This document shows, piece by piece, positions 7,445-34,068 of a stretch of 64,000 bases of DNA (positions are counted from its first letter, which is position 1; each line of letters starts with the position of its first letter). Origin of the DNA: Gemmatimonadota bacterium (lineage in GTDB: Bacteria > Gemmatimonadota > Gemmatimonadetes > JACCXV01 > JAHWKZ01). The stretch spans positions 543 to 64,542 of the forward strand of contig DATKCO010000003.1 of NCBI GenBank assembly GCA_035513155.1. The letters run 5' to 3'. A model generated the notes under the pieces. That model had not been told where the DNA came from. It saw only the letters and a program-made list of their open reading frames with translations, and searched no databases. The position numbers were made by a program, and so were the translations under genes.

Positions 7445-7917
7445 AAACGCAGCCTGTACGGGGCGAGTGCATTCGTCGCTACCCCGCGCCGCTCTTGCTC
7501 TCCCACTCACGCTTCGTTAGGTAGGAGCAAGTGAGACGAAGCTGGCCTCGCTCGAGCTCCACCTCGTTAGCGGGAACGTGAAACGATACTCAGCGGTCCT
7601 CCTCCTGGTGGGGGTACGTTCAACGCGCTTCCGGGCATGGGCAGCTGGTATCTACTGATACCGGCTTCGCCGACGTACGGCATCCAATCCGCGCAGAGTG
7701 GCGAAGCGGCCAGCTGAGACGGGCAGGACCCATCGAATACCTGGCCGGCCCCGGCGAGAAAGTGCCGTCGACCGGACCGGGAACCTGATCGATCCCGTGC
7801 GCGTCTGGTTCTATGTCGTCAGGGTGACGGACACGGATACGAGTCGGATCATCGGGCGGGCTGGGCCGATCGAATACCGGACGGGGTCGAAGAGCAGTCG
7901 CTGAGGAACTGGCCAGG

Positions 7918-10449
7918 CTACGAAGGCTCCTCGTTAGAGGCGACGCGCTGGGAGAGGCGGCGGAGACGTCCGGCGAGCGTGACGAGCAAGGGTTGCGTAA
8001 CCCGCGGTCGGTGGAGCAGGCGGCTCCGGAACATGTTTCCCGGTATGCGGAGAACCCGCAGGGGACCGTCCTTGGGCCGCACGGTGGCCATCCGTGGGCT
8101 GCCATCGAGCAGTGACAGCTCGCCTACGACCTCGCCGGCGCCGAGAACGGCGACCTCGCGGTCCGACCCCTCCCCGGCGGTGGTCCGCGCGCGCAGGACG
8201 ACGGATGCGAGGCCGTCGACGATGATGTACACGGCATCGTCGTCCATGTCGCCTTCCTCGCAGAGAACCTGGGGCGCCGCGACGGTCTCGTCCTCGGTCA
8301 GCCTGCCCAGGTCCTCCAGATCCTCGGGGTCCAGGTGGGCGAACAGAGGGACTCCTCGCAGGAATTGCATCTTTTCGATCGTAGCCAGGCTGGAGAAACC
8401 GGCCGTCGAGCTCTCGCTCTGATCGCTGGCGGGTTTCCCGCAAAGGACGGCGGTTTCCCGGACCAGGGGATGGGAGTCCACCAGGCCACGCGCGACGATC
8501 GTGGGGGCGAGGCTTCCCTCGGTCCCGGCGGTCCAGACAGCGGCCGCGCGGATGTAGGGATCCGTGGCCCCGGCCAGGCGCTCCAGAGCCACTGACCGAT
8601 CGTCCAGGTTCATCTCCTCTACAGGGGGAGCATCGAGGATCAAGGGCGCCAGATCTCCAAGCAGCCCCTCGGTCCCAGGACAGGCCTCCTCGAGTTGTCG
8701 CAGGGCCGCCTTGCGGGTGTCGATCTCCTCAGCCAAGAGACCCGGTCGCAGGGCCTGCACCCGCTCGGCGTCGCCGGCGATCTCCAGGAACTCCAGCACG
8801 CGGCTGATGGCCGCTTCCAGCTCACGGTGCAGGAGATACGCCAGCAGCCCTGCCGCACCCGGTTGGCCGGGGAGGCCCAGGGTCGCGAGATCGCGACGGA
8901 CGGCCAGCGCGTGCTCCACCTGGCCGCGCGCCCGGACGAGCAGCGCGCCGGACTCCCCTCGCATCTGCTCGAGCACGCGGGCGTGGGCCTCGGAGCTGAT
9001 GCCGAACGCGCGCTGGAGCTCGGTCACCTCGCTCGCGGACGCGCGCCGCAGGAGCGCCGCCGCGAGAGCGGTCTGGTAGCCCTCCAACTGCGCGCGCTCC
9101 TCGACGCTACCGACCTCGCCCTGCTCGAACAGCCGACGCTCCTCCTCAGAAAGACGCTCGATCACTTTCTCGTGCTCCCGCGGCGTGATGCCGAGCTGGA
9201 CACGGATCTCGTCGAGGAATCGAAGCTCCCCGCGCCCGACGAGGCCATCGGTGATGATCTCCCGGATCGTGTTGGTGTACGCGGTCAGGTACTGCTCGCG
9301 CGCGTGTTCGCCCGCCTTGATCCATGCATACACCTCACCGGGATCCTGTGGCGGCGGATCCTCGAATGGCCAGTTGCGCAGGAGCTTGACGGCTCCCCTC
9401 TCCTGGATGTAGCGCTCGCGGGTGCGGCGCGATCGCTTGAGGACGAAGAGGGTCGCGATCAGCGGCGCCGCAAAGGCGACCGTCCGGGTAGCGCCAGGCA
9501 GCTGGCGCAAGGAGGGAGCGCCGGCGAAGAAGTAGAAGATGCTGAAGGCCGCGAAGGCGGCGATGGCCAGAGTCAGGTGGCGACGACGCTCCACTTCGGC
9601 GACGGAACGCCCGATGACGGCCTCGATCCCCAGGAAGACCCCGTAGCTGACGGCGGAGAAGACGAGGAGCGTCGCGAGCGCCGCCCCGAATGCCGGGACC
9701 TGCGGGGCGAAGAAGAAGCCGGCACCGGCGACCAGGTCCGCGGTGACCGGGAGCTGGGTCCAGCGACCGTCGAAGTACGCCTCCCAGTCGCCGTGCCGCA
9801 GCCAGTAATAGGTGTAGAAGGCCAGGACGAGACCGGGGAACGCGAACATCGCGACGCGCCGTCCCGTGGACGACACGTCCTGCCAGTAGGCGTTCTCCTG
9901 ATCGATGTCCGGACAATGCTTTTTGCACGCCGTGCACCGGACGCACTGGGAGTTGGAGACCTTGGGTAGAGAGTTGGGCTCGGTGTAGACGCGTTCCACC
10001 AGGCCGACGGGGCAGAGGAAGTTGCACCACGTTTTACCGGTGAAGATCCGGTTCGTGACGGCCGCGGCCGCGGCCAGGCCGATCAGCAGGCCTGCGAGCC
10101 ACAGGCCGTCGCCGTTCGTGGCAATCAGCCGGAAAACCAGCATGGCGAGCAGCAGCCCGAAGGTCACGAGGAAGAACCATCGCTCCAGCCACTTCGGCAC
10201 GCGTCGCTGCGTGCCTCGATTGAGCTTCCGACCCAGCTCGCCGAAGAACGCCAGCGGACAGATCTGGCGCCAGCGGGGGAACCCCATCAGGACGATGGAC
10301 ACGGGCAGCAGCGGGAGGAGCATTGTCCAGAAGTAGCGTGGCAGCGAGTCCGTCGTCAGGCCCACGATGATCGCCGCCCCGTATCCCGCGACGAGCACGG
10401 CACGGGTTCGTCGCTGCCAAACGGTGGGTCCGACCGCTCTACCGGCCAA
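7918..10449 (-). CDS. Multidomain membrane protein: N-terminal polytopic 4Fe-4S-binding (NapH/Fer4_5-like) module, helical/HEAT-like middle region, C-terminal cyclic-nucleotide-binding domain
   Basis: Cys motifs 'CNFLCPVGLVERVY' and 'CVRCTACKKHCPDID' lie between TM segments. HEAT-like 'DPYIRAAAVWTAG...VDSHPLVRETAVLC'. The cNMP domain reads 'FLRGVPLFAHLDPEDLEDL...GAGEVVGELSLLDGSPRMATVRP'. The start is an apparent TTG at 10449 and is uncertain. Confidence 0.8.
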   Translation of the reverse strand: MAGRAVGPTVWQRRTRAVLVAGYGAAIIVGLTTDSLPRYFWTMLLPLLPVSIVLMGFPRWRQICPLAFFGELGRKLNRGTQRRVPKWLERWFFLVTFGLLLAMLVFRLIATNGDGLWLAGLLIGLAAAAAVTNRIFTGKTWCNFLCPVGLVERVYTEPNSLPKVSNSQCVRCTACKKHCPDIDQENAYWQDVSSTGRRVAMFAFPGLVLAFYTYYWLRHGDWEAYFDGRWTQLPVTADLVAGAGFFFAPQVPAFGAALATLLVFSAVSYGVFLGIEAVIGRSVAEVERRRHLTLAIAAFAAFSIFYFFAGAPSLRQLPGATRTVAFAAPLIATLFVLKRSRRTRERYIQERGAVKLLRNWPFEDPPPQDPGEVYAWIKAGEHAREQYLTAYTNTIREIITDGLVGRGELRFLDEIRVQLGITPREHEKVIERLSEEERRLFEQGEVGSVEERAQLEGYQTALAAALLRRASASEVTELQRAFGISSEAHARVLEQMRGESGALLVRARGQVEHALAVRRDLATLGLPGQPGAAGLLAYLLHRELEAAISRVLEFLEIAGDAERVQALRPGLLAEEIDTRKAALRQLEEACPGTEGLLGDLAPLILDAPPVEEMNLDDRSVALERLAGATDPYIRAAAVWTAGTEGSLAPTIVARGLVDSHPLVRETAVLCGKPASDQSESSTAGFSSLATIEKMQFLRGVPLFAHLDPEDLEDLGRLTEDETVAAPQVLCEEGDMDDDAVYIIVDGLASVVLRARTTAGEGSDREVAVLGAGEVVGELSLLDGSPRMATVRPKDGPLRVLRIPGNMFRSRLLHRPRVTQPLLVTLAGRLRRLSQRVASNEEPS

Positions 10450-29162: not shown

Positions 29163-30338
29163 ATGATGGGGTGGGCGGAGCTCGCCGCGCGCTGGCTCCA
29201 CGTGATCGCCGGCATCGCGTGGATCGGCACGTCGTTCTACTTCATCCGGCTGAACGCCGTCCTCAGGCCCGCGGGCGAGCCTGAGGCGGGCGTCGAGGGC
29301 GAGGCGTGGGAGGTCCACGGCGGCGGGTTCTACCGGGTGGCGAAGTACCGGGGCGCCCCGGGCGCGATGCCGAACGAGCTCCACTGGTTCAAGTGGGAGG
29401 CGTACGCGACGTGGCTCTCGGGCGCGTGCCTCCTCGTCCTCGTGTACTACCTGGGCGCCGACGCGTACCTGCTGAACCTGGCGGCCCGGGACATCGGCGC
29501 GGGGACGGGGATCGCGATCGGGGTCGGCTCGGTCGCCGCCGGGTGGCTCGTCTACGAGGCGCTCTGCCGGAGCCCGCTGATCCGGTGGCCGGGGTGGTTC
29601 GCCGGGCTCGGGCTGGCGCTCGCGACCGGGGCCGCGTGGGCGCTCTCCCAGTGGCTGAGCGCCCGGGCCTCCTACATGCACGTCGGGGCCGCCGTGGGCA
29701 CGATCATGGCGGCGAACGTCTTCCTCGTCATCATCCCCGCCCACCGCCACCTCGTGGCCGCCGTCAAGGCCGGGCGGGAGCCCGACGCCAGCCTGGGGAG
29801 GGCCGCGGCCCAACGCTCCCTCCACAACAACTACCTCACCCTGCCGGTCGTCTTCGTCATGATCTCGAACCACTATCCGATGACGTATGCACATCCACAG
29901 GGGTGGCTGATCCTCGGCGCGCTGGGATGGGTGGGCGGATACATCCGCCACTACTACAACCTGCGCCACGCGGGCCGCGACCGGCCGTGGATGCTGGCCG
30001 TCGCGGCGGCGGCGTTCGCCGCCGTCGCGCTGCTCGCGACCGTCGGCGCGCCCGGATCGCGGGAGGCGGGAGCCGACGAAGCGACGGTCGGGCTGGCGGA
30101 GGTGCGGGAGGTGATCGCGGTCCGCTGCGCGCCATGCCATTCCGCCGATCCCGTCCACGAGCTCTTCGACGCCCCGCCGGCGGGGATCGCCTTCGACACC
30201 GAGGAGGAGATCCGGGCCCGCGCGGCCGAGATCCACGCGGTCACGGTCGAGACCCGGATCATGCCGCTCGGGAACCTGACCGGAATGACCGAAGAAGAGC
30301 GCGCGCTGGTGGGGCGCTGGGCGCGACAGACGAGATGA
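29163..30338 (+). CDS. puuD: Membrane cytochrome-c urate hydroxylase (PuuD-like)
   Basis: The polytopic N-terminus 'WLHVIAGIAWIGTSFYFIRLN' is followed by a C-terminal haem-c motif 'VRCAPCHS'. It lies immediately after uraH. Confidence 0.8.
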   Translation: MMGWAELAARWLHVIAGIAWIGTSFYFIRLNAVLRPAGEPEAGVEGEAWEVHGGGFYRVAKYRGAPGAMPNELHWFKWEAYATWLSGACLLVLVYYLGADAYLLNLAARDIGAGTGIAIGVGSVAAGWLVYEALCRSPLIRWPGWFAGLGLALATGAAWALSQWLSARASYMHVGAAVGTIMAANVFLVIIPAHRHLVAAVKAGREPDASLGRAAAQRSLHNNYLTLPVVFVMISNHYPMTYAHPQGWLILGALGWVGGYIRHYYNLRHAGRDRPWMLAVAAAAFAAVALLATVGAPGSREAGADEATVGLAEVREVIAVRCAPCHSADPVHELFDAPPAGIAFDTEEEIRARAAEIHAVTVETRIMPLGNLTGMTEEERALVGRWARQTR

Positions 30339-30398
30339 GAGAAAGGTAGTACACTCCAGGTGCAGCCAATCTCCGCAACTCGAGACGAGGAGTGGCTC

Positions 30399-30749
30399 GT
30401 GCAGATTCAAGTCAACACGGACAGAACGATCAAGGGTGACGAGGATTTGACGCAGCAGGTCCGGGCTGAGGTAGAGGCGAGACTGGGACGTTTCGGTGAC
30501 CGAATCACGCGCATCGAGGTTCATCTCGGTGATGAGAATAGTCACAAGTCACGCGGGGACGACAAGAGGTGCCTGATAGAGGTCCGGCCTGCAGGGCTCA
30601 AACCCGTCGTTGCGACGCACCGAGCCCCGAGTGTCGCTCTGGCCCTCGAAGGGGCGGCGGATAAGGTGGAAAGGCTCCTCGATGGAGCCCTCGAGAGGCT
30701 GTTCGATCCCAAGGGGAGGACCCCCTACGGAGGGGATCCGGAAGCGTGA
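30399..30749 (+). CDS. HPF/RaiA-family ribosome-associated protein (short form)
   Basis: The GTG at 30399 is preceded by GAGGAG. 'VQIQVNTDRTIKGDEDLTQQVRAEVEARLGRFGDRITRIEVHLGDENSHKSRGDDKRCLIEVR'. Confidence 0.7.
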   Translation: MQIQVNTDRTIKGDEDLTQQVRAEVEARLGRFGDRITRIEVHLGDENSHKSRGDDKRCLIEVRPAGLKPVVATHRAPSVALALEGAADKVERLLDGALERLFDPKGRTPYGGDPEA

Positions 30750-30773
30750 GAGACTCTCTCGAGGAGAATACCC

Positions 30774-31943
30774 ATGCCTCAATATGCCGAAACCAGTCAT
30801 ATCTCCCAGTTGCTGGCGGATCATCAGCCGCCCTGCCTCTCGCTGTATCAACCCACTCACCGACATCACCCCGATAATCGCCAGGACCTGATTCGCTATC
30901 GGAACCTCGTTCGAGAGCTCGAGGACTCCCTGAACCGGAAGTATCCGGCGCGAGATGTGTCCTCGCTCATGAAGGAGTTTCAGGGGCTGGCCACAGACGG
31001 CGAATTCTGGAACCATCGCACGGATGGACTGGCGATCCTGGCTGCGCCCGGCGCGTTCCAGGTCTTCGAGCTCCAGCGTGCCGTGCCGGAGCTTGTCGTC
31101 GTGGCGGACAGCTTTCATCTCAAACCCCTCATTCGGATCGTCCAGTCGGCCGACCGATACCAAATCCTGTGCCTGAACCGACACGCCGCCCGACTCTATG
31201 AAGGCAACCGTGACACCCTGGACCCGGTGGATCTTACGAACCTGCCCGCGACCATCACGGAGGCGCTCGGGGAGGAATTGACCGAGCCACACCAGACCGT
31301 AGCCTCGTACGGGGAGGTCAGAAGCATGCCCGGTGGCTCGCGAGGTCAGCAGGCCATGCACCATGGACATGGGGCGAAGAAGGACGAAGTCGATATCGAC
31401 ATCAAGCGCTTTTTCCGGGTCATCGACCGAGGAATCCTCGAACACCATTCGCGCCCATCGGGTCTGCCGCTGATGCTCGCGGCCTTGGCCGAGCATCACG
31501 GGCCATTCCGCGCAATCAGCCAGAATCCTCACTTGTTGCCCGACGGAATCACGACGAACCCCGATGCGCTTTCAGTGGATCAGCTACGGGTCGAAGCATG
31601 GCGGAAGATCGAGCCCATCTATCTCGACCGACTCGCTCGTCTGGTGGACGCTTATCAGGTGGCGAAATCCCGCCGCCTCGGGTCGGATGACGTGCTGGAG
31701 GTCGCAGTCGCGGCAAGCGCAGGGCGGATCGACACGCTGCTGGTCGAAGCCGATCGGCAGGTTCCCGGTCGGATGCAACCGGAAACCGGCGAGATCGAGT
31801 TCGGCGATCTGGCCGATCCCGACACCGACGATGTCCTCGATGACGTCGCGGAGCTCACCCTTCGCATGAAAGGCCGGGTCGTCGTGGTTCCCGGGGAGCG
31901 AATGCCCAGCACGACCGGCCTGGCGGCAACCTACCGGTCGTAG
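30774..31943 (+). CDS. Bacterial archaeo-eukaryotic release-factor-like (baeRF/eRF1-fold) protein
   Basis: The N-terminal pattern 'ISQLLADHQPPCLSLYQPTHRHHPDNRQDLIRYRNLVRELEDSL' resembles baeRF-family proteins as I remember them. It has a Gln-containing loop 'PGGSRGQQ' (aa 186-193). GAGGAG RBS. Function is assigned from recalled family resemblance only. Confidence 0.55.
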   Translation: MPQYAETSHISQLLADHQPPCLSLYQPTHRHHPDNRQDLIRYRNLVRELEDSLNRKYPARDVSSLMKEFQGLATDGEFWNHRTDGLAILAAPGAFQVFELQRAVPELVVVADSFHLKPLIRIVQSADRYQILCLNRHAARLYEGNRDTLDPVDLTNLPATITEALGEELTEPHQTVASYGEVRSMPGGSRGQQAMHHGHGAKKDEVDIDIKRFFRVIDRGILEHHSRPSGLPLMLAALAEHHGPFRAISQNPHLLPDGITTNPDALSVDQLRVEAWRKIEPIYLDRLARLVDAYQVAKSRRLGSDDVLEVAVAASAGRIDTLLVEADRQVPGRMQPETGEIEFGDLADPDTDDVLDDVAELTLRMKGRVVVVPGERMPSTTGLAATYRS

Positions 31944-31955
31944 GGGAGAGCTAGC

Positions 31956-33215
31956 CTAGTCGCTCTCGGCGCGACCCTGTAGGATGGCGAGGAACGACCG
32001 CGTCCGGAGCTCCTCCAGCGAGAGGCCGGTCGCCAGCGCCTCCTCCTCCGTGATCGCCCCGCAGCCGGTTCCCCGCAGGAAGAAGTTCAGCAGCGCCTGG
32101 CCGGTGGCGGCGTCGTCGAACACATCGCCGGTCAGGGTCGCCCGCGCGGCCCGCTCGACGAAGCGGGAAAGCCGCTCGGTCGCGGCTTCGAGCGCCTCGA
32201 GGAAGAACGCGTACACGGCGGCGTAGCGGGTCGGGAGCTGGGCGGGGTGGAGGTCCCATCCCTGGTAAAAGCCGTGGCGCAGGGAGTGGCGAACGTGCCG
32301 GTAGTGGAGCGCCCAGCCGCGGTGGACGGCGGCGCGGTTCTCGGCTTCCTCCTCGGAGGTCAGAGAGCGACCCTCCGCGGCCCGATGGGGCGGCGCCGGC
32401 ATGACGTTCGTCGCCCCGTCGGACAGCCATACGCCGGAGTCGGATAGCGAGACTTGCATCATGTGACGCGCGAAGTCACAGGCCGGGTGGTCGAGATCCT
32501 GGTGGAGCGCGGTGATCCCGAGCGAAGCCGTGTAGTCGTAGATGCCGAAGTGGGCGGCCGCGCAGCGGCCGCGTCCCGCCGCCACCAGCGCGGGCAGGGG
32601 ACACGACCCGTCGGGCCCGAGGATCGACTGCGGGGTCTCGACCATGATCTCGAGCCGGATCGCGCCGGGGGCGAGGCCGGCCCGCTCCTCGAGCGCGTCC
32701 AGCAGGTCGGCGAGGACCGCGACCTGTTCGGGGACGACAACCTTGGGGTCGGTGACGAAGAGTGGCTCGGGGAGCACGCCACCGCTGGTCTCCAGGAGCG
32801 CGTCGAGGAAGATCTCGAGCGTCCGCCCGGCCCGCCCCGCGAGCTGCTCGGTGAAGGGCTTGACGCGGATCCCGAGGAACGGCGGAAGCGTCCCCTCGGC
32901 CAGCCCGCGCGCGACCTCGCGACCCGCGGCCCCGGCGGCGGCGTCCTCCTCGGCGTCGGGGCGGTTCCCGAAGCCGTCCTCGAAGTCGATCCGGAAATCC
33001 TCGACGGGCTCGATCTCGAGCTTTCGCACGATCCGCTCCCGCACCGGGTCCGCGAGCCGGGCGTCCATCCCCAGGACGTCGGCGAGTGTTTCGGCGTCGG
33101 GCGCCCACGCGTCGAGCGCCCGCAGCGCGAGGTCGCCGAGCCGTCGGGCGGTGTCGGCGCGGAAGAGATCCGCCCCTCCGTAGACGGTATGGACGGGCTG
33201 GCGGGACTCGGGCAT
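31956..33215 (-). CDS. HpcH/HpaI-aldolase / citrate-lyase-beta / malate-synthase-like TIM-barrel protein
   Basis: The internal ATG at 33215 gives 'MPESRQPVHTVYGGADLF'. Motifs 'FRIDFEDGFG' and 'IRLEIMVETPQ' resemble the CitE/HpcH metal-binding pattern. The exact family is not resolved. Confidence 0.5.
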   Translation of the reverse strand: MPESRQPVHTVYGGADLFRADTARRLGDLALRALDAWAPDAETLADVLGMDARLADPVRERIVRKLEIEPVEDFRIDFEDGFGNRPDAEEDAAAGAAGREVARGLAEGTLPPFLGIRVKPFTEQLAGRAGRTLEIFLDALLETSGGVLPEPLFVTDPKVVVPEQVAVLADLLDALEERAGLAPGAIRLEIMVETPQSILGPDGSCPLPALVAAGRGRCAAAHFGIYDYTASLGITALHQDLDHPACDFARHMMQVSLSDSGVWLSDGATNVMPAPPHRAAEGRSLTSEEEAENRAAVHRGWALHYRHVRHSLRHGFYQGWDLHPAQLPTRYAAVYAFFLEALEAATERLSRFVERAARATLTGDVFDDAATGQALLNFFLRGTGCGAITEEEALATGLSLEELRTRSFLAILQGRAESD

Positions 33216-33225
33216 GCGCCGGGGT

Positions 33226-34068
33226 CTACCGGCCGCCCGCGGAAGCCGGCAGGACGGCGTCGTAGAGGACGCGCGCCAGGACTCGGGATCGGTACCGGGC
33301 GCTCGACCGCACGTCGTCGATGGGGGAGACGTCGGCGCGGAGCGCCTCATCGAGGTCCTCGGGGTCGCGCGGGGGAGGTCCCGCCTCGAGTCGGGCCTCG
33401 ACGGTGGGGCAGCGACGCACGGTCGGGGCCACGCTGGCGGCGACGACGCGCCAGCCGGCGTCGTCGGAGCGGGTCACCGCGAGCCCGACCTTGGCGATCG
33501 CCTGCGCCCGCCGCGGCCCGACCTTGACGAACCGCTGGAGGGCGTAGCGCCGGAGGGGGAGGCGGATCGCGACCACGAGCTCGTCCGCGCGCCGGACGCT
33601 CTCCCGGTACCCGGTGTAGAAGGCGTCGAGCGGCACCTCCCGGCGCCCGTCGCGCGCGGCCAGCACGACCGTGGCGTCGTACGCCATGAGGACCGGCACC
33701 CCGTCGGCGGCGGGCGAGCCGTTCACGATGTTGCCGGCCCAGGTGCCCCGGGACTGGATCTGGATCGCCCCCACCTGGCGGGCGGCCTCGACGAGGAGCG
33801 GGAACACAGCGGGAACGCGGGGATTCACGATCACGTCCCAGTAGCTCGCGAGGGCCCCCAGCTCCAGCCCGTCGGCGCTCCAACGGAGCCCGCGGAGGGC
33901 ATCGATCCTCACGAGGTCGAGGAGGTCCCGCCCGTGCTGATCGACCTTCTGCGGCCAGTGGACGAAGAGGTCGGTGCCGCCGGCGACGGGAAGGAGGGAG
34001 TCGCCGTCCGGGCGGTCGGCCAGGAGATCCAAGGCCGCCCCCAGCCCGGTCGGCCGCCGGACGGTCAC
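33226..34068 (-). CDS. Molybdenum hydroxylase FAD-binding (medium) subunit, system 1
   Basis: The GTG at 34068 directly abuts the upstream stop. 'LLPVAGGTDLFVHWPQ...GTWAGNIVNGSPAADGVPVLMAYDATVVL' is the CO-dehydrogenase-flavoprotein/XdhB pattern. Confidence 0.85.
   Translation of the reverse strand: MTVRRPTGLGAALDLLADRPDGDSLLPVAGGTDLFVHWPQKVDQHGRDLLDLVRIDALRGLRWSADGLELGALASYWDVIVNPRVPAVFPLLVEAARQVGAIQIQSRGTWAGNIVNGSPAADGVPVLMAYDATVVLAARDGRREVPLDAFYTGYRESVRRADELVVAIRLPLRRYALQRFVKVGPRRAQAIAKVGLAVTRSDDAGWRVVAASVAPTVRRCPTVEARLEAGPPPRDPEDLDEALRADVSPIDDVRSSARYRSRVLARVLYDAVLPASAGGR

Follow-up and report, generated by a model that had tools for sequence, protein, structure and literature searches.

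Balon is a ribosome hibernation factor of the A site, known since 2024 from ribosome-bound cryo-EM structures and from a knockout whose documented phenotype concerns recovery from long stationary phase (PMC10901736). Balon genes "most frequently" adjoin raiA, and a single ribosome binds both Balon and RaiA. The HP motif of Balon touches the decoding center, and Balons have no GGQ and leave the nascent chain intact (PMC10901736). The neighborhood of baeRF and HPF genes had been recognized in 2019, together with a proposed non-catalytic role in the A site (PMC6514570). In the same survey most baeRF families, which have no conserved catalytic Gln, were predicted to be catalytically inactive, a few families (e.g., family 10) were found to conserve this Gln, and a Dom34-like rescue role was considered for baeRFs (PMC6514570). 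The horizontal spread of accessory factors was described in a 2025 preprint, in which accessory HPF copies travel with Balon (10.1101/2025.11.04.686544). The Balon-RaiA pair is thus already known in its neighborhood, its structure and function, and its spread, and the locus described below is no new system.

In the analyzed window, i.e., the whole stretch of 64,000 nucleotides, a short HPF/RaiA-type gene is followed by a gene of the Balon family. The locus adds little conceptually, and its value is that of a very clean natural example of the known pair: Balon and RaiA genes inserted into a Gemmatimonadota lineage at an intergenic site of variable content, absent from eight congeners and retained under purifying selection. 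The initial annotation had considered the release factor-like families of the longer protein essentially uncharacterized experimentally. That statement is outdated, since baeRF_family3 includes Balon, with structures and a knockout published in 2024 (PMC10901736).

A low-GC segment between convergent host genes

The GC content of positions 30340-31950 is 0.617, compared with 0.716 and 0.735 in the flanks of equal length and 0.711 (sd 0.030) across the 2.45-Mb genome, where only 0.27% of 1611-nt windows are as GC-poor (0.27th percentile). The third codon positions differ as well: the pair has GC3 values of 0.685 and 0.738, against 0.87-0.92 in six neighboring genes, a drop of 0.15-0.2 relative to the flanks. 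The drop in GC noticed in the initial annotation is therefore real and far from chance, and its effect is seen at the codon level.

The segment consists of two co-directional genes, exactly 24 nt apart, flanked on either side by the stop codon of a host gene. On its left is the end of the host urate operon, a puuD-type membrane urate oxidase gene on the plus strand (29166-30338; PF06181 Urate_ox_N, E 6e-118), which is host-like in composition (GC3 0.90) and which in congeners has 74-79% identity and is likewise convergent to the DUF6986 gene. The GC drop starts in a 60-nt spacer (30339-30398, plus strand) with a Shine-Dalgarno-like GAGGAG at 30387-30392. The HPF/RaiA-type gene (30399-30749, plus strand) and the Balon-family gene (30774-31943, plus strand) follow. 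The 24-nt spacer between them (30750-30773, plus strand) carries its own GAGGAG (30761-30766) 7 nt ahead of the ATG, which suggests co-transcription of the two genes with separate initiation. On the right, the acquired segment joins the host through a 12-nt spacer (31944-31955) between the stop codon of the Balon-like gene and that of the convergent host gene. The latter (31956-33350, minus strand; PF22484, E 1.5e-172) is the last of a minus-strand string of Mo-hydroxylase genes and encodes a DUF6986 protein with a distant likeness to the malate-synthase TIM barrel; it too is host-like in composition (GC3 0.90) and is 79-83% identical in 8/8 congeners. Scans for sigma-70 promoters and intrinsic terminators at the pair found none, and an Rfam scan of 29800-32400 gave no match at E values up to 1.

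The short HPF-like gene, the 24-nt gap and the 389-aa reading frame described in the initial annotation are all present (30360-30749 and 30774-31943), as are the strings it quotes, with one revision at the 5' end. The longest reading frame of the HPF gene starts from GTG 30360 and would encode 129 aa. This start was dropped, as homologs point instead to GTG 30399: all 30 of the 30 aligned homologs begin there with M-x-I-Q-V/I-N-T-D, and the solved homolog of Acinetobacter baumannii (7m4z_v) aligns from the same residue. GTG 30399, preceded by the GAGGAG at 30387-30392, is the most likely start on this comparison and would give a protein of 116 aa.

A Balon-family protein and its HPF partner

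The first protein had been annotated as HPF/RaiA from the letters alone, and domain, structure and fold comparisons bear this out. It matches PF02482 with 33.6 bits, above the gathering cut-off of 23.7, but scores 21.7 bits against TIGR00741, for which the equivalog cut-off is 40.9; by this score it is classed as a divergent HPF/RaiA subtype. PDB chain 7m4z_v, the HPF bound to the A. baumannii 70S ribosome, matches it over the full length (E 2.3e-21), with ~40% identity and the same length of 116 aa. The AF2 model (pLDDT 81.6) has a beta-alpha-beta-beta-beta-alpha topology, with strands at residues 2-7, 36-45, 56-64 and 70-76 and helices at 15-32 and 79-102. In Foldseek the best match of this model is again 7m4z_v (TM 0.81/0.92, rmsd 1.5 Å), the second is 8rd8_D, the RaiA co-bound with Balon, and the top 35/35 matches are all HPF, YfiA or pY proteins. 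The fold is that of short HPF/RaiA (YfiA), and the protein has no C-terminal dimerization domain. What sets it apart from YfiA is a subtype-specific C-terminal tail, DPKGRTxYGGD, common only to HPFs encoded upstream of Balon-like genes. The host also keeps a canonical long HPF beside rpoN and hprK, and the HPF of the segment is an accessory copy, which fits the published pattern of accessory HPFs that travel with Balon (10.1101/2025.11.04.686544).

The second protein, of 389 aa, belongs to the baeRF group, as the initial annotation had proposed. It matches PF18845 (baeRF_family3) with 153 bits (cut-off 31.5; E 1.1e-44), and the Balon chain 8rd8_B matches the same model (E 4.5e-30), which places both in one Pfam family. 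Against NF052287, the "AOC03_06830 family ribosome hibernation factor," it scores 178.5 bits, below the cut-off of 330, in an alignment that covers model positions 3-360 of 361. By the NCBIfam threshold it is thus assigned as a family relative of Balon and not as an equivalog. Direct comparison with 8rd8_B gave E 3.4e-16 with a single sequence (phmmer) and 1.9e-30 with the family profile. By sequence the founding Balon is in fact closer to the 389-aa protein than to Msmeg1130 (E 0.13). The AF2 model (pLDDT 81, pTM 0.73) has the three-domain fold of eRF1 and Pelota. In Foldseek, Balon, Msmeg1130 and Rv2629, which are Balon structures of three species, take ranks 1-5 and 8 (E 7e-22 to 1.5e-11, TM ~0.54), and aRF1, eRF1 and Pelota rank after the Balon structures (E 1e-13 to 1e-6). 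The protein shares its overall three-domain architecture with aeRF1/eRF1 and Pelota/Dom34, but no match to either was found at the sequence level, even by family profile.

In the N domain, the codons for residues 28-33 (30855-30872, plus strand) encode THRHHP, which aligns with THREHP in the "HP motif" region of Balon, so that a THR-x-HP segment is common to both proteins. Across 37 homologs T28, R30 and P33 never vary and H29 hardly does. Position 32, the His of "HP" and also His here, is H, R, Y or V across the 37 subclade homologs. In the C domain the model has two short strands, at 331-334 and 341-343, that align by sequence with the corresponding segment of Balon and may be equivalent to its EF-Tu(GDP)-binding beta-hairpin insertion.

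In the M domain, residues 173-201 (31290-31376, plus strand) form a variable, disordered loop that includes the "GGSRGQQ" (31332-31352) taken for a Gln loop in the initial annotation. This string is no conserved motif. Judged from the 37 homologs, no other part of the family varies as much: length and sequence of the loop are free, some members have it deleted, and no Gln is conserved. In the AF2 model its pLDDT is below 50. The strings GGQ and NIKS were searched for in the 389-aa protein and neither is present, as in Balon, which makes peptide release by this protein unlikely; relative to aeRF1/eRF1 and Pelota/Dom34, its loop in the catalytic position is free to vary. After the loop, the subclade has a nearly invariant segment, HGHGxKKDE. 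A family-profile search of the PDB (E up to 10), run to place the GGQ equivalent, matched no eRF1 or aRF1 chain. HGHGxK would perhaps line up with the HGRGGQ of eRF1, a lead that plays no part in the evidence here. Balon itself has no HGHGxKKDE, and its M-domain loop approaching the peptidyl-transferase center is also different; the details at that center may thus differ from those of Balon.

Overall identity with Balon is only ~19% in the structural alignment, and the subclade of the 389-aa protein is far more conserved, with 60-75% identity across ~18 phyla. This subclade is abundant in environmental bacteria (>6,000 cluster representatives). The presence of an adjoining HPF/RaiA gene, reported for most Balon genes, is another shared feature. 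An HPF of this subtype is adjacent and co-directional in 44/80 related loci from ~18 phyla, and the other 36/80 have no adjacent HPF of this subtype. The HPF gene precedes the Balon-like gene in all nearest relatives whose flanks are intact and follows it in the remaining paired loci. The two genes are a conserved pair across phyla.

Acquisition from another phylum

Horizontal acquisition of the pair, suggested in the initial annotation and here traced to another phylum, is well supported by the deviant GC and GC3, by the absence of the Balon-like gene from congeners at a conserved site, and by a discordant phylogeny. The Balon-like gene was found in 0/8 congeners, 1/24 genomes of the same family and 13/200 genomes of the phylum, with identities of at most 65%. 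In the congeners, the site between the puuD-type and DUF6986 genes carries a glyoxalase gene, in some cases accompanied by two genes for membrane proteins, or consists of just 81 nt. The nearest relatives, alike in gene order and GC, belong to Nitrosospira, Acidobacteriota and Planctomycetota. In a tree built with a "quick" method the 389-aa protein falls together with those of Nitrosospira and of Acidobacteriota (SH-aLRT 96), and AU tests, for groups defined only once the tree was known, reject placing it among the Gemmatimonadota copies (P = 2e-52, 1.9e-5 and 1e-3). Furthermore, in relatives with the same gene order the pair has a GC content of 0.57-0.62, matching the 0.617 observed here, and the C-terminal tail of the HPF is common to them. 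When the flanks were searched for direct or inverted repeats, nothing beyond short matches at chance level turned up, and no integrase, transposase or tRNA target was seen among the neighbors, which are catabolic genes.

The host genome is a MAG (83% complete, 140 contigs). An independent Logan contig from another run (L183) carries the same pair with 97% identity and reproduces the right junction together with 33 nt of the end of the host gene. The 24-nt intergenic spacer of this contig has one difference, at the base before the ATG. The dN/dS is 0.12, and the pair is under purifying selection in its new host.

Predicted function and competing explanations

The locus is very probably a two-gene ribosome hibernation module, composed of a short HPF/RaiA and a Balon-family factor, that was gained horizontally as a unit and sits between convergent host operons. 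Homology to the solved P. urativorans complex is the basis for inferring that the proteins bind ribosomes, that they do so jointly, that EF-Tu is involved and under which conditions they are induced. By this analogy, starvation, cold or stationary phase would prompt the Balon-like protein to enter the ribosomal A site without any need for mRNA. Its N domain, which bears THRHHP, would be placed at the decoding center, its M domain would reach toward the peptidyl-transferase center while leaving the peptidyl-tRNA unhydrolyzed, and its C domain would touch EF-Tu(GDP). The short HPF/RaiA would fill the mRNA/tRNA path of the 30S subunit, and both factors together would silence and protect ribosomes until conditions improve. 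The initial annotation had left the choice between ribosome rescue and a stress or hibernation role. Hibernation is much better supported for the pair than ribosome rescue or peptide release.

Two explanations would retain an activity at stalled ribosomes. If the Gln of "GGSRGQQ" were catalytic, the 389-aa protein could be a release or rescue factor and the HPF a mere helper, a reading in line with the eRF1/Pelota fold, with the Gln-containing, glycine-rich loop of this one sequence and with the catalytic Gln kept in a few baeRF families such as family 10 (PMC6514570). We consider it very unlikely, as the protein has neither GGQ nor NIKS, the loop varies or is deleted without a conserved Gln in 37 homologs and is disordered in the model, the closest solved relatives are the GGQ-less Balons, in whose presence the nascent chain stays intact (PMC10901736), and most baeRF families, having no conserved catalytic Gln, were predicted in 2019 to be inactive (PMC6514570). 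Slightly less improbable, yet still very unlikely, is a non-catalytic module for rescue or ribosome splitting like that of Pelota/Dom34. Pelota and Dom34 are significant Foldseek matches (ranks 22-40), and the Dom34-like role was raised in the 2019 survey (PMC6514570), but Balon fits far better (E 1e-21 vs. 1e-7; TM 0.54 vs. ~0.25) and is all that sequence searches recover. No gene for ABCE1, an Hbs1-like protein or a splitting factor is linked, and the gene conserved beside it encodes a hibernation factor.

Other explanations concern the status of the segment. A MAG that is 83% complete and split into 140 contigs invites the suspicion of an assembly or binning artefact, and the negative promoter scan would suit a recent, non-functional passenger. 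Both are extremely improbable, given that the block fits precisely between two host stop codons, whose genes are neighbors in congeners, that L183 (97% identical) has both the pair and its right junction, and that both reading frames are intact, each with a GAGGAG ribosome-binding site, at a dN/dS of 0.12. The patchy distribution and horizontal movement of the pair would also be expected of a conflict module (anti-phage or abortive-infection) that shuts down translation on infection. We give this hardly any credence: a PADLOC scan returned 0 matches for either protein, the flanks are catabolic operons with no defense or mobile-element neighbors, and the phenotype documented for Balon is the stationary-phase recovery described above (PMC10901736).

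Within the hibernation reading, the subclade could be a self-contained, mobile two-protein cassette, mechanistically unlike the Balon-RaiA-EF-Tu mode of Psychrobacter through an action at the peptidyl-transferase center or an obligate co-binding with its own HPF. This is unlikely, although a little less so than any of the explanations weighed above. The conserved and abundant subclade is a reasonable candidate for the next Balon-type structure. The features from which the cassette reading was drawn are the conserved subclade itself, its HGHGxKKDE segment, the dedicated short HPF, and the C-terminal tail that accompanies the HPF-upstream gene order.

Composition and integrity of the locus

The region at 30340-31950, which the initial annotation had described as less GC-rich than both flanks, has a GC content of 0.617, whereas that of the genome is 0.711 (sd 0.030 in 1611-nt windows; whole assembly, 2.45 Mb in 140 contigs). 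This value lies at the 0.27th percentile of such windows across the assembly, and is thus no chance fluctuation. By sliding window, GC ranges from 0.60 to 0.63 inside the region, against 0.71-0.78 on both sides. The deviation is located at third codon positions, with GC3 of 0.685 in gene 1 and 0.738 in gene 2, compared with 0.87-0.92 in six flanking genes.

All strings quoted by the initial annotation were found in the raw sequence. According to the ORF listing and the raw sequence, the longest ORF of gene 1 is GTG-initiated and occupies 30360-30749, and the ATG-initiated gene 2 (389 aa) occupies 30774-31943, exactly 24 nt further on. The start of gene 1 is almost certainly the GTG at 30399, giving a product of 116 aa, because M-x-I-Q-V/I-N-T-D opens every homologue and is also where the alignment with the solved A. 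baumannii homologue begins. A GAGGAG is located at 30387-30392, 6 nt before this GTG, and a second one at 30761-30766, upstream of the gene 2 ATG. Scans of the locus for Rfam elements, sigma-70-like promoters and intrinsic terminators were negative, thus the pair may be transcribed by read-through from the urate operon or from a promoter that escaped recognition.

An independent Logan assembly contig (L183, run SRR29887048; 1334 nt, 97% identical) runs from the HPF gene's 3' end through the spacer, in which one base differs, and the entire Balon-like gene to the same 12-nt junction and the last 33 nt of the DUF6986 gene. Since the junction is reproduced in an independent contig, the right junction of the pair is real. 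Between the window and L183 copies dS is 0.102 and dN 0.013, and the dN/dS of 0.12 indicates that the Balon-like gene is under purifying selection in this lineage. Neither protein of the pair matched the defence-system models.

Protein families, folds and the variable loop

The small protein, correctly recognised beforehand as hibernation-factor-like, matches Pfam PF02482 (Sigma-54 modulation/S30EA) above the gathering score and, across its whole length (E = 2.3e-21), 7m4z_v, the "ribosomal subunit interface protein" of 116 aa seen on the 70S ribosome of A. baumannii. Its AlphaFold2 model, with 31 sequences as input, has the canonical beta-alpha-beta-beta-beta-alpha order (pLDDT 81.6), and the top 35 Foldseek matches are without exception HPF, YfiA or pY proteins. 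The best of these is 7m4z_v (TM 0.81/0.92, rmsd 1.5 Å), and the second is 8rd8_D, the RaiA sharing the P. urativorans ribosome with Balon.

The 389-aa protein matches baeRF_family3 (PF18845, E = 1.1e-44) and, more weakly, sister baeRF families. It also aligns over its full length with NF052287 of NCBIfam, the "AOC03_06830 family ribosome hibernation factor" (AOC03_06830 is the locus tag of Balon), at 178.5 bits, below the equivalog cut-off of 330. Its PDB sequence matches are Balon only (8rd8_B, 8rdv, 8rdw), at E = 3.4e-16 for the single sequence and 1.9e-30 for a 37-homologue profile. The Balon chain, in the form given by the 8rd8_B alignment, scores to PF18845 at E = 4.5e-30, thus both proteins belong to one Pfam family. 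The expected eRF1/Pelota-like fold was recovered by Foldseek. The three-domain AlphaFold2 model (pLDDT 81, pTM 0.73) finds P. urativorans Balon first (E = 7e-22), and Balon, M. smegmatis Msmeg1130 and M. tuberculosis Rv2629 rank above archaeal aRF1, eukaryotic eRF1 and Pelota/Dom34. Judged from this model, the closest structural relative is an already characterised hibernation factor, and the view that baeRF families are essentially uncharacterised is out of date. The N-terminal THRHHP is aligned opposite THREHP of Balon, and its T28, R30 and P33 are invariant across the subclade in the alignment of 37 homologues. In Balon, this "HP motif" region touches the decoding centre (PMC10901736).

The initial annotation, right about both protein identities and the transfer, erred on the state of knowledge and also on GGSRGQQ (residues 187-193), which it over-read as a Gln loop. 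Among the 37 homologues, whose identity to the window protein is 62-75%, this stretch is the sole part varying freely in length and sequence; it is deleted in some, no Gln is conserved, and residues 173-201 have pLDDT below 50. Neither GGQ nor NIKS was found in the 389-aa protein; Balon likewise lacks both, and preserves the nascent chain (PMC10901736). The loop also agrees with the pattern reported by Burroughs and Aravind for most baeRF families, in which the catalytic loop is unconstrained, the catalytic Gln is missing and arginines of the next helix are conserved; these authors predicted them to be non-catalytic A-site binders (PMC6514570).

A nearly invariant segment, HGHGxKKDE(V/I)D, was observed in the homologue alignment (A1) right after the variable loop and before the Arg-rich helix (R212, R215, R219); residues 198-206, GHGAKKDEV (31365-31391), are part of it. 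The founding Balon sequence reads SANNENSYLKEFF where this segment would fall, with no counterpart. Its position may resemble the eRF1 HGRGGQ context, with Lys in place of Gln.

Horizontal acquisition at a variable intergenic site

The proposed horizontal acquisition is borne out by distribution and phylogeny as well as by composition. Judged by the closest relatives of the flanking gene, the host is a Gemmatimonadota MAG. None of the 8 other congeneric species carries the Balon-like gene; within the family it was found in 1 of 24 genomes, at 57% identity, and a phylum-wide sample of 200 genomes contained it in 13, at no more than 65% identity. In the maximum-likelihood tree, the window protein groups (SH-aLRT 96) with sequences from one Nitrosospira and two Acidobacteriota, nested in a clade of Planctomycetota, Acidobacteriota, Pseudomonadota and Melainabacteria; six Gemmatimonadota sequences and that of the same-family genome are placed well away. 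Trees forcing the window protein together with the Gemmatimonadota or same-family copies were rejected by AU tests (p = 2e-52, 1.9e-5 and 1e-3), the tree being built by a "quick" method and the tested groups named after it had been seen. In relatives with the same gene order, the GC of the pair is 0.57-0.62, equal to the 0.617 of the window. No repeats, integrase or tRNA marking the insertion were found at the locus.

The baeRF3 subclade (L004-L083) is unusually conserved across phyla, at 55-75% identity among Pseudomonadota, Planctomycetota, Actinomycetota, Verrucomicrobiota and others. On its tree, sequences of different phyla are intermixed (34 changes of phylum label against a minimum of 17), which indicates frequent inter-phylum transfer.

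In the congeners (loci L096-L102 of G001-G008; window equivalent 30339-31955), the puuD-type urate oxidase (PF06181; 29166-30338, plus strand, in the window) and DUF6986 (PF22484; 31956-33350, minus strand) genes are adjacent and convergent, with a variable gap. G008 has 81 nt here, apparently including what is left of the beginning of a glyoxalase gene. A glyoxalase/VOC gene (PF00903) occupies the gap in G003 and G004; besides this gene, G001 has two small membrane-protein genes without Pfam match, which also occur in G005 and G006. Some gaps hold a glyoxalase-family gene of about 370-400 nt, and the larger ones (about 1.0-1.4 kb) hold a glyoxalase gene or remnant and the two membrane-protein genes. 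Because gap content differs between congeners, the pair sits in a variable intergenic spot. The glyoxalase reading frame in G003 looks split. The DUF6986 ORF, listed as 464 aa, probably starts later; its homologues all align from about residue 40-50 onward only, and its N-terminal 45 residues are Arg/Pro/Ser-rich. Its product weakly resembles the TIM barrel of malate synthase (E = 4e-4).

Conserved pairing and candidate mode of action

Among 80 related loci from a species-representative genome collection (about 18 phyla), 44 have an HPF of this subtype immediately adjacent and on the same strand; the other 36 do not, a handful of them ending at a contig edge. The HPF is downstream in 36 loci and upstream in eight (L004, L005, L007, L008, L012, L047, L062, L073), the upstream loci including every nearest relative of the window protein with intact flanks. 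The C-terminal tail DPKGRTxYGGD is common to upstream-type HPFs and the window HPF, whereas downstream-type HPFs lack it.

The host also encodes a canonical long HPF (locus L001; about 7560-8100, minus strand, of contig C111 in host genome G000), with an N-terminal PF02482 match (E = 3e-18) and a C-terminal extension. On this contig, which is not that of the pair, its neighbours are the conserved ones classical for hpf, with rpoN (sigma-54) on one side and an HPr kinase/phosphorylase-like gene on the other. The pair is extra to this long HPF and exactly fits the pattern of a 2025 preprint, in which horizontally acquired accessory HPF copies occur beside the canonical long HPF, often adjoining Balon (10.1101/2025.11.04.686544). 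The pairing is already known rather than new, a persistent baeRF-HPF operonic association having been noted in a 2019 survey (PMC6514570), and the general interest of the pair is low.

The best-supported reading, which we consider probable, is that the 389-aa protein would be a Balon-type A-site hibernation factor acting with the short HPF/RaiA, the latter blocking the path of mRNA and tRNA on the 30S subunit, as seen in PDB 8RD8. The analysis establishes the families and folds of the proteins, the linkage of their genes across phyla, the foreign origin of the pair and its maintenance by selection; that the proteins bind the ribosome, and do so together, that EF-Tu(GDP) takes part, and what triggers the response, are inferred. 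Room for a mechanistic variant of the founding Balon mode, an improbable alternative, is left by the low identity to Balon and sub-threshold NCBIfam score, by the far more conserved subclade of the window protein, by the HGHGxKKDE segment missing from Balon, and by a partner HPF of a subtype with its own tail.

In several homologues (P0021, P0068, P0083, P0089, P0092 and P0027, from L021, L068, L083, L089, L092 and others), an insertion of 20-40 residues, His-rich in some (HQHHHHDATGRSEP), was observed in the C-domain hairpin (A1 columns 382-440), which in Balon is the EF-Tu-binding insertion.
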